From Eledone cirrhosa (taxonomy: Eukaryota): a stretch of 64,000 bases of DNA. The notes under the pieces were generated by a model. That model had not been told where the DNA came from. It did not search any database and worked only from the letters and a program-made list of their open reading frames with translations. A program made the translations under genes and the position numbers. Numbering within the stretch: position 1 is the stretch's first letter; each line of letters begins with the position of its first letter. The DNA lies in the NCBI GenBank assembly GCA_964016885.1, contig OZ024743.1, positions 327,236,001 through 327,300,000 of the forward strand. The letters run 5' to 3'. Positions 9,442 to 12,087 of this stretch are shown here, piece by piece.

Positions 9442-9486
9442 GCTGACAATTATTTCTTCCAAACCTAGACTTGGAGTTTTCTGAGC
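9442..9486 (-). ncRNA. Decayed hammerhead-like motif
   Basis: Minus strand GCT-CAGAAAA-CTCCAAG..TTTGGAA-GAAAT-AATT-GTC-AGC. The stems and palindromic loop III are retained but the CUGANGA core is mutated. Confidence 0.4.
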
Positions 9487-9692
9487 ATTATATATACATT
9501 CAATGTATATATATATACATTCAATGTATATATATATATATATATAAGGGTTAAAATACTGGAGCGTGTTGGAGTTAAACACCCTCTTCATATTATAGAA
9601 ATGACAGTAAAAGGTATAGCTCAATGTAGTTAAACAGAGCCGAAAAATTAAGAAAGTAAAACAAAGAAGCCTTCAATACATCAAAAGTCTTT

Positions 9693-9737
9693 ATTAGCCG
9701 ACAATGTTTCGTCCTATTAAGGACTCATCAGGGCAAT
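9693..9737 (-). ncRNA. Minimal type I hammerhead ribozyme (mirror copy)
   Basis: Exact reverse complement of 9896-9940. Confidence 0.8.
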
Positions 9738-9895
9738 TAAAACAACAAGAAGTAATATCGGCAGATACAAGCCGGAAGCTCCGAAGAATATGGAGTGTAC
9801 ATACACTAAAGTATTGCAATACTTTAGTGTATGTACACTCCATATTCTTCGGAGCTTCCGGCTTGTATCTGCCGATATTACTTCTTGTTGTTTTA

Positions 9896-9940
9896 ATTGC
9901 CCTGATGAGTCCTTAATAGGACGAAACATTGTCGGCTAAT
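9896..9940 (+). ncRNA. Minimal type I hammerhead ribozyme
   Basis: GCC-CTGATGA-GTCC-TTAATA-GGAC-GAAAC-ATT-GTC-GGC: intact core, 4-bp stem II, GUC triplet, stem I GCC/GGC. AATAAA follows at 9938-9943. Confidence 0.8.
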
Positions 9941-10202
9941 AAAGACTTTTGATGTATTGAAGGCTTCTTTGTTTTACTTTCTTAATATATATATATATAT
10001 TAATTTAGAATAAATCATTTTCAAATACGAAAACAGATAAAGGTAGGTGAAGTTATTACAGCTCAAAATATGAGATTTATTATAATAAACTACTCAGAAG
10101 GCTATATACAAGATTTACTTGTATGAACTCCTTGTTTCAATTGTTTAAATACACTCATAGAGCAAATATAACATTGAAAATATGACCAAATTATATCATA
10201 TT

Positions 10203-10296
10203 TTAATCAACACATGTTTCTTCCATTCCATAGGACATACAATTAAATATTAGTTAATTAATTATATGAACCAATGATTGGGTTCGTCAGAATTAA
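10203..10296 (-). ncRNA. Hammerhead motif with extended, imperfect stem II
   Basis: Minus strand TTAATT-CTGACGA-...-GAAAC-ATGT-GTT-GATTAA. 6-bp stem I, palindromic ACATGT, internal hairpin CATATAATTAA/TTAATTGTATG. The base of stem II is mispaired. Confidence 0.5.
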
Positions 10297-10380
10297 TTTT
10301 TTAAAATGCAAGAATCATTACCTCTTCAATTCATTTTGTATATGAGTTTACATTACTGGTAAAACGATTTTTACCAGTAA

Positions 10381-11512
10381 TATGTATGTGTGTGTGTGTG
10401 TGTGTGCGTATGCTGATGCATATGTATATGTATATATATATATGTATGTATGTATGCATGTATATAGATGTATATATATATATATATGTATGCATGTATA
10501 TAGATGTATATATATATATGTATGTATGCATGTATATATATATATATATATATATATATATATATATATATATATATATGTATGTATGCATGTATATAGA
10601 TGTATATATATATATATGTATGCATGTATATAGATGTATATATATATATATGTATGCATGTATATAGATGTATATATATATATATGTATGCATGTATATA
10701 GATGTATATATATGTATATATATATATATATATATGTATATATATATATATATGTATATATATATATATATATATATATGTATATATATATATGTATATA
10801 TATATATATATATATATATGTATGTATGCATGTATATAGATGTATATATATATATATATGTATGTATACATGTATATAGATGTATATATATATATATATA
10901 TGTATGTATGCATGTATATATATATATATATGTATGTATGCATGTATATAGATGTATATATATATATATATATATATGTATGTATGCATGTATATAGATG
11001 TATATATATATATATATATATATATATATTTCGTTTCTGAATTTGTTTAGCAAGATTCTTTATCTGAAATCGTGTGTTGAAACCGATATTGTTATACAGA
11101 AATTTATAAGTTTGTAGATTTGTAAATTTATAAATTTATAAATATATAATAAATTGAAGTGAAAGCAACTGGTGCGTGTGTTTCTTATTGGCAACATGAC
11201 CCTCCCAAAGTATAACAATATATATATATATATATATATATATATATATATATATGTATGCATGTATATAGATGCATATATATTATATATATATATATAT
11301 ATATATATATGTATGCATGTATATAGATGCATATATATTATATATATATATATATATATATATATATATATATATATATATATATATATGTATGCATGTA
11401 TATAGATGCATATATATTATATATATATATATATATATATATATATATATATATATATATATGTATGCATGTATATAGATGCATATATATTATATATATA
11501 TATATATATATA
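10381..11512. repeat. Compound (TA)n microsatellite/minisatellite
   Basis: (TA)n runs punctuated by recurring GTATGCATGTATATAGATG units. Source of the spurious IY/YI ORFs. Confidence 0.95.
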
Positions 11513-11595
11513 CATAAATACAGAAGGTTAGTTATCAGTCACTGGTATACAGAAAATCTCAATGAAAGATAGCTAAAATTATCAATTTAGAGAAT

Positions 11596-12020
11596 TATAT
11601 ACATACAGAATAATCTTACAAAGTTAACATGAGGTAAATTCCTAGTAAAGCAACCTAAAATAAGATCATTTCACCATTAATCTCGCCGTTACTATGGTTT
11701 CAACTCAGAAGACAGCATTAGCCATTTTAATACAGACAATACTGAAGAAATTCAGTTTCATCAGAGGGCTTCTTTGAAAGTATAAAATAATATTCACCTG
11801 TTAGTTAATGGAATAAGTCCATTGCCAATCCAGCATGGAGTAAAATTTCAAACATGCGTAAACCAACCAACCAAATAAATATTTGTCCATCACAGACACT
11901 ATCTTATCAGTTGAAAACACGGTAAGGGCAAGATTAATGGTAAAGTGATCTTCTTTTAGATTGCTTTTCCAGGAACCTACCCATTGTTAACTTAGTAAAA
12001 GTTATTCTATCTGTATATAT
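11596..12020. repeat. Diverged inverted repeat (Penelope-like pLTR pair)
   Basis: Arm ~11596-11715 (AGAATAATCTTACAAAGTTAACA...GATCATTTCACCATTAATCT) is the imperfect reverse complement of ~11895-12020 (AGATTAATGGTAAAGTGATC...TGTTAACTTAGTAAAAGTTATTCT). Confidence 0.75.
11685..11769 (-). ncRNA. Type I hammerhead motif with long stem II insertion
   Basis: Minus strand GCCCT-CTGATGA-AACT...AGTT-GAAAC-CATA-GTA-ACGGC. Intact core, GUA triplet, stem I 4/5 paired. The opposite arm retains the perfectly matching AGGGC. Confidence 0.65.
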
Positions 12021-12087
12021 ATATATATATACACATACACTGATGTTTAGAAAAGCCCCTTGTTTTTGGATATTACATTATTAGTAT

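Follow-up and report, generated by a model that had tools for sequence, protein, structure and literature searches.

Hammerhead motifs beside a TNF-like gene in Eledone cirrhosa are likely passive relics of Penelope-like-type insertions

Minimal hammerheads of metazoans cut poorly, with no detectable cleavage as monomers (PMC4209133), and the hammerhead of a lizard Penelope-like element (PLE) cuts only with protein (PMC11167929). Among PLEs, Hydra-1_Obim is listed with a (TA)n target (PMC8557442 supplement). Exon-overlapping retrozymes of Xenopus tend toward 3′ UTRs (Li et al. 2026, bioRxiv 10.64898/2026.07.22.740005). The Clec2 hammerheads recur in homologues of several mammals and lower reporter output by 80% (PMC2950038), and repeats in squid 3′ UTRs are often edited (Albertin et al. 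2022, PMC9068888). Among the octopus hammerhead papers listed in a literature search, none was a census judging by title or start of abstract.

Here we describe hammerhead motifs downstream of a TNF-like gene within a 64,000-nt stretch of the Eledone cirrhosa genome (the window). They are very probably the hammerhead ends of four separate Penelope-like-type insertions, placed end to end and bounded by (TA)n tracts, and likely do not cut the mRNA. The gene is spliced and expressed and probably encodes a type II TNF-family ligand, with Pfam TNF scores below the cut-off. Its four exons match the Octopus sinensis LOC115209654 protein at 49-62%. Exon 1, which carries the predicted transmembrane segment, falls at a locus beyond the window (L083:2-256). 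The start of the TNF domain is encoded at 22041-22173 (minus strand; 62% identity by tblastn, boundaries from sequence), followed by a middle coding exon at 12961-13059 (minus; 58%) and the coding part of the last exon at 12088-12277 (minus; 50%, E 2e-6). RNA contig 23 covers the middle exon, joins 12961 to 12277 with CT..AC ends at depth 82, and has a loose end at 13063 that matches exon 22041-22173. The stop codon that had been placed on the minus strand next to the cluster is read as TGA at 12090-12088. Against Pfam TNF, the last exon (E 0.017) is under the cut-off and the LOC115209654 protein, which has a hydrophobic segment at its N-terminus, scores 21.8 bits, slightly below the cut-off of 23. 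The last exon also yields weak C1q-type matches. A dedicated search found no longer homologues of this exon; a full HMMER scan with it recovered the LOC115209654 protein, and a second match was disregarded as repeat-driven.

All four hammerhead motifs of the original prediction are found in the sequence. Motif A (11685-11769, minus) is of type I and keeps all 12 core nucleotides, with CUGAUGA at 11764-11758, then GAAAC-CAUA-GUA, a long helix II (56 nt) and a predicted cut at 11690/11689. Its helices are partly decayed: "intact" applies to the core but not to helix I, with a C.C mismatch, helix II, with a G.G mismatch, or loop 3, which is non-palindromic. Motif B (10203-10296, minus) has a long AU-rich helix II and a GUU triplet. 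Motif C (9693-9737, minus) matches Rfam Hammerhead_1 (31.7 bits, E 6e-4), and motif D (9442-9486, minus) is indeed dead, with two core changes in its first box (CAGAAAA, CCGAAGA in the family). A fifth hammerhead, on the plus strand at 9896-9940 (also 31.7 bits), is identical to motif C, which itself forms one half of a near-perfect palindrome of ~170 bp. The type I core (CUGANGA, then GAAA...UH) is present in A, B and both C copies and fails in D.

It is scarcely credible that AT-rich sequence yielded these motifs by chance or that they stem from faulty assembly. Rfam detects motif C and its mirror copy alone among the window hammerheads, both below the gathering score of 34, and motifs B and D fail a strict descriptor. 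Yet a descriptor scan of the window gave five hits against a mean of 0.075 over 40 shuffles, every motif has counterparts in other copies of its repeat family, and covarying pairs are seen in family A. DNA contigs of three runs from one sample match 11525-12001 in pieces that overlap, with no other letters in runs X1 and X2. Family alignments and, for 11525-13300, DNA contigs already refute this reading. Rfam miRNA matches in the window were rejected as TA-repeat noise.

The motifs exceed chance; their clustering does not exceed the genome background. A family-blind relaxed scan, which was tuned after motif D had been seen (favouring the window) and misses motif B, found 70 motifs in 60 preset 10-kb stretches (600 kb), against 2 and 6 in shuffles. 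Clusters of at least four motifs within 2.65 kb occur in six of the 60 stretches, and the window equals this by the same scan, so the cluster is ordinary in this genome. Three motifs on one strand occur in 5/60 stretches, as in the window, a comparison in which the four same-strand insertions are not matched like for like because motif B escapes both descriptors. For 64 of the 70 motifs a (TA)5 tract is found no more than 300 nt away, compared with 37% of random positions. Two other estimates of the background undercounted it and were replaced by the relaxed scan: the strict descriptor gave 11 hits in 600 kb, and with a known-family library seven of 56 family loci had a single further hammerhead family no more than 1.5 kb away and no locus had two. 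By both measures, four families in 2.4 kb looked rare. A hammerhead cluster near a gene is to be expected in this genome, which serves as a warning for such loci.

Genome-wide, we estimate roughly 3x10^5 hammerhead motifs, or about one per 9 kb, with a U15.2-A16.2 family dominating the count. For specialists in ribozymes and transposons, this side count may be of greater interest than the locus itself.

The motifs had been read as a sense-strand cluster. Four do lie on the minus strand, but the identical copy of C at 9896-9940 is on the plus strand. We rejected the idea that insertions favour the sense strand: the chance that all four share a strand is 1 in 8, and two of them carry mirror copies.

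All four motif types recur in dispersed repeats, each in a different family. Element C consists of a direct copy with the hammerhead at 9693-9737 (9545-9816, minus; 99-100% identical copies genome-wide) and an inverted copy with the fifth hammerhead (9817-9986, plus; 99-100% to family copies), which together follow the pattern of 5′ truncation plus inverted copy. It appears to be the 3′ pLTR end of a young Hydra-type PLE, and element D (9229-9491, minus; 90-96% to copies), which carries the dead hammerhead, appears to be that of a related, older PLE. A full family C copy (L042) is arranged as pLTR-ORF-pLTR with 4.76 kb between pLTRs, and family D has the same arrangement in loci L075-L077. In both families, same-strand pLTR pairs 4.2-6.3 kb apart bracket ORF matches to reverse transcriptase (RT) and GIY-YIG; the latter is under the Pfam cut-off (E 0.0044), with YRDD and TYIG motifs present. 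The family C protein has ADKTK (DKT) and the linker CNCRVSANC (CxCX5C), RIRWH or RIRWR where the Hydra clade has RWK, and TA flanks; the CCHH pattern had no match in the C and D family ORF sequence searched. Family D is 5′-truncated, with inverted copies in loci L064, L070, L075 and L076. Element B (9986-10364, minus; ~74-83% to copies) is an old repeat that carries the motif at 10203-10296. B, C and D lie 1.4-2.3 kb beyond A, past about 1.1 kb of TA microsatellite (TA-rich blocks with self-inverted repeats, 10420-11520).

Element A comprises a direct copy with an ~80-nt tail ending in (TA)n (11505-11895, minus; boundaries approximate) and an inverted 5′-truncated copy (11899-12019, plus; from blastn and fold prediction) that forms the upstream hairpin arm. 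The inverted repeat noted shortly after the stop is thus confirmed, with arms at 11596-11715 and 11899-12019 that are 80% identical over 121 nt; blastn was used for inverted repeats, the TA microsatellite having overwhelmed the repeat finder. The inverted 5′ copy, tail and TA target are Penelope-like traits. A Penelope-like origin is supported for C and D by RT and GIY-YIG in full copies and is probable for A from these traits; B is unplaced.

Copies of family A are 64-82% identical, and we regard it as an old, ORF-less, permuted, retrozyme-like family of ~465 nt. Its tail reappears upstream of the 5′ part in loci L046, L047, L085, L090 and L091 and continues head-to-tail in L183, L184, L185 and L187. 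The pair in L180 arose by local duplication. Family A thus has the short non-coding unit, type I hammerhead and head-to-tail copies of retrozymes. No dimer with two complete hammerheads was found among 58 matches or 12 loci inspected, and the family is filed as retrozyme-like, not as a retrozyme member. Among the fetched loci, which are top-scoring copies only, no ORF is linked to family A or B.

The window copy of A appears decayed like its siblings, with no sign of special preservation. All 12 core bases are kept in 15 of 29 other copies, the pair at the window's C.C is A-U or C-G in 17, the pair at its G.G is G-C in 19, and loop 3 is palindromic in 16. The covarying pairs (helix I, A-U 11 and C-G 6; loop 3, U-A, C-G and U-G) come from counts at named positions, as RNAalifold gave no consensus structure on the alignment. 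In stand-alone fold cost, the window motif ranks 11th of 30 family copies. The AUUAAA expected within helix II is located at 11731-11726 (minus), in the helix II extension. This candidate poly(A) signal is element-borne and also occurs in 7/29 other copies.

The RNA of the gene passes through element A. The transcribed 3′ region extends at least over 11525-12087 (minus; RNA contigs 23, 22, 21, 19, 20, 18 and 17) and about 90% of it is element A, so that motif A and the inverted repeat are inside it, as anticipated. Its strand is taken from the spliced gene. Run X3 was recognised as RNA from its splice joint, X1 and X2 are DNA runs, and RNA contig coverage was examined over 11525-13300. RNA contig 21 (depth 71) reaches 20 nt past the predicted cut, short of the 31-letter bar of the contig tool for bridging, and all of contig 17 (11525-11645, depth 15.7) is on its far side. 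Below 11645 depth is down from 71-82 to 15.7, in contigs that show neither RNA ends nor levels; such a drop would also be seen if most molecules ended near AUUAAA or the cut site.

The upstream arm is complementary to the 3′ half of ribozyme A, and the predicted fold of the transcript is dominated by this pairing. The inverted arm, transcribed first, would pair with GAAAC...GUA and helix I to form a duplex of about 120 bp, excluding the ribozyme fold. An AUUAAA-terminated transcript would miss the 3′ half of the ribozyme, and so no cleavage is expected whichever 3′ end is used. Folding, which polyadenylation had been suggested to pre-empt, appears to be pre-empted more by the inverted arm than by the AUUAAA. 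With tertiary contacts, kinetics and proteins left out of the energies, the fold of motif A is predicted to cost +31 to +32 kcal/mol in context and +22 to +24 kcal/mol in an RNA ending just beyond helix I. Predicted helix pair probabilities are ~0 in the UTR context, and the model does not support an active fold of motif A in the mRNA.

Element A could in principle have been co-opted as a ribozyme switch, its hairpin opened in some of the molecules by editing, a helicase or a protein, with a cut after GUA at 11690 that removes the poly(A) and lowers the TNF ligand, in the manner of the Clec2d ribozyme. The 12/12 core on the sense strand of a transcribed region and the lower RNA depth past the predicted site agree with this, and the lizard PLE hammerhead is protein-assisted (PMC11167929), so poor free folding is no bar. 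We nevertheless consider such a switch very unlikely. The fold cost of +22 to +32 kcal/mol remains at a predicted +14 to +20 kcal/mol with all 44 A's of the upstream arm altered, and editing of the lower arm would presumably strike the GAAA core itself. Helices I and II are mismatched, the loop 3 palindrome is lost, no second complete family A copy lies nearby for a dimer, and an intact core is common among siblings. We place as little credence in a gated ribozyme, in which the hammerhead is kept closed by the antisense arm until ADAR editing or a protein releases it, and the cut after GUA 11690 links editing to cytokine output; if true, invertebrates would have an equivalent of the Clec2 ribozyme with an editing switch added. 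The proposal that a ribozyme sets the 3′ end or the stability of the mRNA is not supported, given the fold cost, ordinary decay and RNA past the predicted cut. Nor is control by B, C and D, given their distance behind the TA tract; D is dead and C is closed within its own palindrome, where the active fold would cost a predicted +65 to +68 kcal/mol.

The hairpin arms are split into short variant contigs in the RNA run only; across 11763-12001 the DNA contigs are continuous and carry no alternative letters. An A-to-G search over the arms, as originally proposed, lists one candidate A-to-I site, at 11934 (minus; T>C on the plus strand; predicted partner U11680). The variant has depth 13.3 of 25.7 in X3 and 0 of 8.55 (X1) and 0 of 7 (X2) in the DNA runs, in values that derive from contigs rather than reads and from an RNA sample coded differently from the DNA runs, so it could be an allele. 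Contigs 18-20 at 11616-11691 were rejected as firm editing evidence because paralogues L003 and L004 match 46 nt at 98%. The RNA-only variants, including the one A>G, suggest ADAR editing of the arms, and the idea of dsRNA as an editing substrate is plausible.

The insertion might instead be kept for a non-catalytic role, as a working poly(A) signal (AUUAAA 11731) or, once edited, as a hairpin governing how far the RNA is retained in the nucleus or how stable it is, which we regard as unlikely. This AUUAAA is the sole AAUAAA or AUUAAA between the stop and 10207, RNA depth drops below 11645, and the fragmented arms are in line with the frequent editing of squid 3′ UTR repeats (PMC9068888). However, upper-arm editing needs the lower arm, so edited molecules reach past 11680, and the 80% likeness of the arms equals family-wide divergence, with no pairing-specific constraint evident. 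This explanation shares its origin with the passive insertions that we favour and differs only by claiming a selected function.

We propose that the locus is built of passive insertions as follows. Elements insert at (TA)n and leave mostly 5′-truncated 3′ ends, to which an inverted copy is often joined, and each insertion thereby deposits one or two hammerheads; C and D display this, and A and B would have arisen likewise. From identity to copies, A and B (~75-82%) would have come first, then D (~93%) and then C (~100%), which lies between B and D. ADAR likely edits the duplex formed by the arms of A, a common fate of 3′ UTR repeats in cephalopods. If the mRNA is affected at all, the hairpin or the poly(A) signal that the element donated would be responsible, and catalysis would not. 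Rather than a Clec2-like switch, the motifs are probably passive retroelement relics, accompanied by a hairpin in the 3′ UTR that is likely edited. The locus shows how PLEs can strew hammerheads and inverted repeats around the neighbourhood of genes, and it offers a small, tractable example of a 3′ UTR that is built from a retroelement and likely edited.

Several described systems resemble parts of this locus. The pLTR hammerheads of PLEs (Cervera and de la Pena 2014, PMC4209133) share the type I core, short helix I, tiny helix III and palindromic loop, as well as many families per genome, mostly solo truncated copies and opposite-strand pairs 100-700 nt apart. In contrast to that description, helix II of families A and B is far longer (56-62 nt between boxes, against 7-8 bp), family D has a CCGAAGA box, and one window copy sits in a host 3′ UTR. 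With C-terminal EN+ PLEs of the Hydra clade (Craig et al. 2021, PMC8557442), the PLE families found here share RT then GIY-YIG, DKT, CxCX5C, no CCHH match, a canonical hammerhead in the pLTR, a (TA)n target, an inverted 5′-truncated copy and a tail. Family C differs in its length, with ~4.8 kb between the pLTRs where the clade is generally given as <3 kb, and in RW(H/R) for RWK, and its assignment is by motifs rather than by comparison with Hydra-1_Obim itself. Family A resembles non-LTR retrozymes (Cervera and de la Pena 2020, PMC7229834) in its short ORF-less unit, type I hammerhead and permuted head-to-tail copies, whereas its ~465-nt unit is at or just above the described 150-450, it is old and decayed, and no dimer with two complete hammerheads was seen. 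The locus shares with coleoid ADAR-edited 3′ UTR repeats (PMC9068888) a mobile-element inverted repeat and A>G in RNA versus DNA, here one listed site in contigs of a differently coded sample. With the rodent Clec2d/Clec2e hammerheads (PMC2950038) it shares a hammerhead core that is interrupted by a large insertion and sits in an immune-type gene's 3′ UTR; unlike those, the insertion is in helix II and not in loop 1 or 3, and the motif is an ordinary decayed repeat copy that is predicted to be sequestered by an antisense arm.

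Sequence reading and a descriptor scan recover all four hammerhead motifs of the original prediction, A (11685-11769), B (10203-10296), C (9693-9737) and D (9442-9486), all on the minus strand downstream of the TNF-like gene, and add a fifth that it overlooked, an identical copy of C on the plus strand (9896-9940). That the motifs are an artefact is vanishingly improbable: the scan matches the window five times against 0.075 per shuffle (40 shuffles), and A, B, C and D each belong to a separate dispersed repeat family. Elements D (9229-9491), C (direct copy 9545-9816, inverted copy 9817-9986) and B (9986-10364) follow one another; a TA-rich microsatellite of ~1.1 kb follows, and then A (~11505-11895) with its own inverted copy (11899-12019). 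The published insertion signature of these elements is a 5'-truncated copy with an adjoining inverted copy and a tail.

Family C copies are 99-100% identical (40 scored from 1986 first-look candidates, a figure that is not a copy number). At another locus in the genome (L042), two same-strand C copies 4.76 kb apart enclose an RT and GIY-YIG reading frame. This ORF has the DKT and a CxCX5C linker and gave no CCHH match; the available portion of PMC8557442 reports those same features, with insertion at (TA)n, for the Hydra clade of Penelope-like elements, and its supplement already lists Hydra-1_Obim from Octopus bimaculoides. Recent activity is suggested by the young Hydra-type element of L041-L044 (e.g. 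L042:1017-6091): its terminal repeats (pLTRs) are 99-100% identical genome-wide, and its RT and GIY-YIG frames are long, with frameshifts in the copies examined. In L045, two pLTR copies of family C enclose a reading frame with a QACRG motif (L045:2612-3235, minus strand) that we take, from its translation, to be caspase-like.

Family D (copies 90-96% identical) flanks related ORFs in L075-L077, and its first box, CCGAAGA, has decayed to CAGAAAA in the window copy. The CCGAAGA box with a C.A mismatch at the base of helix II occurs in nearly all 11 aligned D copies (9442-9486, L064-L074) and, judging from this alignment, is a natural core variant. In family B (74-84%), helix II is long and AU-rich, and the fetched loci showed no ORF linked to the family. 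Family A (64-82%) has two alternative ends ~80 nt apart, each entering (TA)n. Several copies show the tail a second time ahead of the 5' part, so that the unit is permuted; it measures ~465 nt, and we found no ORF in it. Such a unit resembles the non-LTR retrozymes described in the accessible parts of PMC7229834 and bioRxiv 10.64898/2026.07.22.740005; a dimer with two complete hammerheads was not seen in the family, which is therefore filed as retrozyme-like. Elsewhere in the window, a short remnant at 1231-1365 (minus strand) matches a Penelope-like RT protein (49% over 45 aa, E 1.7e-6).

The genomic background was sampled in 60 stretches of 10 kb at fixed coordinates set before inspection. 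With the strict descriptor, the 599.8 kb yielded 11 motifs (1, 0, 0, 0 and 0 in shuffles), five of them in a single stretch, and a homology library found 18. After exclusion of the copies in the window, one overlapping locus and two segmental duplicates, 56 family loci remained; seven of these lay within 1.5 kb of a single other family and none lay that close to two. These counts first suggested that the cluster is rare, a reading abandoned when a relaxed, family-blind scan showed that both earlier measures undercount. That scan detected 70 motifs in the stretches, whereas shuffled sequence gave 2 and 6; at least four motifs fell within 2.65 kb in 6 of the 60 stretches, and three on one strand in 5, as in the window, a comparison that is inexact because the scan had been adjusted to detect D and does not detect B. 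For 64 of the 70 motifs a (TA)5 lies no more than 300 nt away, compared with 37% of random positions, and stacking next to a long TA tract is what (TA)n targeting would give. The density of 1.17 per 10 kb (bootstrap 0.77-1.63), about one per 9 kb, extrapolates from the 60 stretches to ~330,000 motifs (210,000-470,000) in the 3.0-Gb genome; for comparison, PMC7229834 reports 126,247 in axolotl, and PMC4209133 reports ~9,000 minimal motifs in Xenopus tropicalis. A U15.2-A16.2 pair (GAAAU...AUA) is present in 41 of the 70, and many have UUUUAU/AUAAAA as helix I. This abundant type also occurs in a palindromic element at 54867-55200 with hammerheads on both strands (54907-54955, minus; 55108-55156, plus), whose copies are 91-99% identical (1671 first-look candidates). 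An additional relaxed-scan match at 21583-21656 (minus strand), in an intron, is AU-rich and possibly due to chance.

The TNF-like gene lies on the minus strand. Its first exon falls outside the window (L083:2-256) and was placed by its match to P0002, a TNF-like protein of Octopus sinensis (LOC115209654); the exons at 22041-22173 and 12961-13059 and the last coding exon, from 12277 to the TGA at 12090-12088, were placed by that match and sequence reading. P0002 is the closest match among 1.84 billion representatives (49-62% identity per exon); a hydrophobic segment lies near its N terminus, and its C-terminal TNF domain scores 21.8 bits, just under the Pfam cut-off of 23, and the last exon by itself gives a Pfam TNF E of 0.017. 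The gene is best read from these features as a type II TNF-family ligand, and a cytokine function would follow from family membership. In run X3, a 1053-nt contig (depth 82) links 12961 directly with 12277, the ends being CT..AC, and extends to the exon at 22041-22173; intron bins of unique sequence show zero depth, and X3 is therefore RNA. In the first intron, on the opposite strand, an ORF at 33542-34210, presumably histone H1-like from its translation and lysine-rich tail, precedes a histone 3' stem-loop match (34230-34271), and a second such match at 29412-29456 attains the gathering score. An intronic block of ~8 kb (14000-22000) with strong GC skew (-0.39 to -0.50) is probably a tandem or simple repeat. 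Short intronic repeats (12365-12484, 12545-12604 and 12725-12904) are covered very deeply in every run, reaching ~29,000 in DNA contigs, and so represent very abundant families.

The original prediction proposed that the ribozymes, among them motif A with its intact core, could have a regulatory role. The family of motif A yielded 44 full-length matches, reduced to 29 distinct copies once near-duplicates were dropped. With all 12 core bases present in 15 of the 29, an intact core is nothing unusual in this family. Covarying pairs (A-U in 11 and C-G in 6 for helix I; loop 3 palindromic in 16/29) indicate that the ribozyme was real during the family's spread. In the window copy, helix I contains C.C, helix II contains G.G (G-C in 19/29) and loop 3 is not palindromic. 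The stand-alone fold cost of this copy, 8.3 kcal/mol, ranks 11 of 30; that of young motif C is 2.7.

Within the mRNA, the 3' region is predicted to form a single long hairpin, in which the arm 12019-11899, transcribed first, would pair with the GAAAC...GUA and helix I of motif A. Leaving out tertiary contacts and proteins, the predicted cost of the ribozyme fold is 31-32 kcal/mol for the full region and 22-24 if the RNA stops just past helix I, with pair probabilities of ~0 for the A helices. It still costs 14-20 kcal/mol when all 44 upper-arm adenosines are altered as a stand-in for editing. Motif C is locked in its own palindrome by a predicted 65-68 kcal/mol. An mRNA ending at the AUUAAA at 11731, a hexamer present in 7 of 29 sibling copies, would lack the 3' half of ribozyme A. 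As far as the consulted excerpts go, metazoan minimal hammerheads show undetectable monomer and low dimer cutting (PMC4209133), and a lizard hammerhead cut only with protein, with no reads ending at its site (PMC11167929). An active ribozyme switch is thus very improbable for motif A, its full core set against the fold cost of 22-32 kcal/mol and its standing as an ordinary decayed copy.

The RNA evidence over element A comes from contigs of one run (X3) of one study. One contig (11670-11933, depth 71) spans the whole motif and the AUUAAA and extends 20 nt beyond the predicted cut (11690/11689), less than the 31-letter bar for bridging; another (11525-11645, depth 15.7) lies entirely past the cut. 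The drop in depth does not discriminate between a 3' end close to the AUUAAA, one around 11500 and cleavage. In RNA the hairpin arms are broken into 53-61-nt contigs with 2-3 other letters, and DNA contigs cross 11763-12001 unbroken with none. The search for A-to-G changes in the arms returned one listed site, T>C at 11934 (A>G on the mRNA), at depth 13.3/25.7 in RNA and 0 in DNA runs X1 and X2, with X4 lacking cover. The contig that carries it shares 30 nt with the motif-spanning one, and the closest of the fetched paralogues reach no more than 85% identity in this part, so the variant likely comes from this locus; the RNA's sample code differs from that of the DNA, so it could be an allele. 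The predicted partner of 11934, U11680, is located beyond the AUUAAA and also beyond the cut; editing at 11934 would therefore imply uncut RNA. We consider ADAR-type editing of the 3' UTR hairpin probable; editing of 3' UTR repeats is a common pattern in squid, according to the available text of PMC9068888. That the insertion was selected for a non-catalytic role is another reading, which we regard as unlikely.

The motifs are very probably passive remains of retroelements, and the hairpin in the 3' UTR is likely edited. Retroelement origin, as originally proposed, is borne out by the C and D pLTRs that flank ORFs, and the proposal of an edited dsRNA is plausible; ribozyme control is not upheld. 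Among papers on hammerheads in octopus and molluscs, transposable elements and polyadenylation, with subscription journals thinly covered, titles and abstract openings mentioned nothing on this locus. The window motifs share origin and form with the minimal hammerheads of Penelope-like elements and with retrozymes, and Xenopus retrozymes that overlap exons tend to lie in 3' UTRs (bioRxiv 10.64898/2026.07.22.740005, in the part available). Clec2 ribozymes, unlike motif A, are found in several mammals and lower reporter output by 80%, according to the accessible part of PMC2950038.
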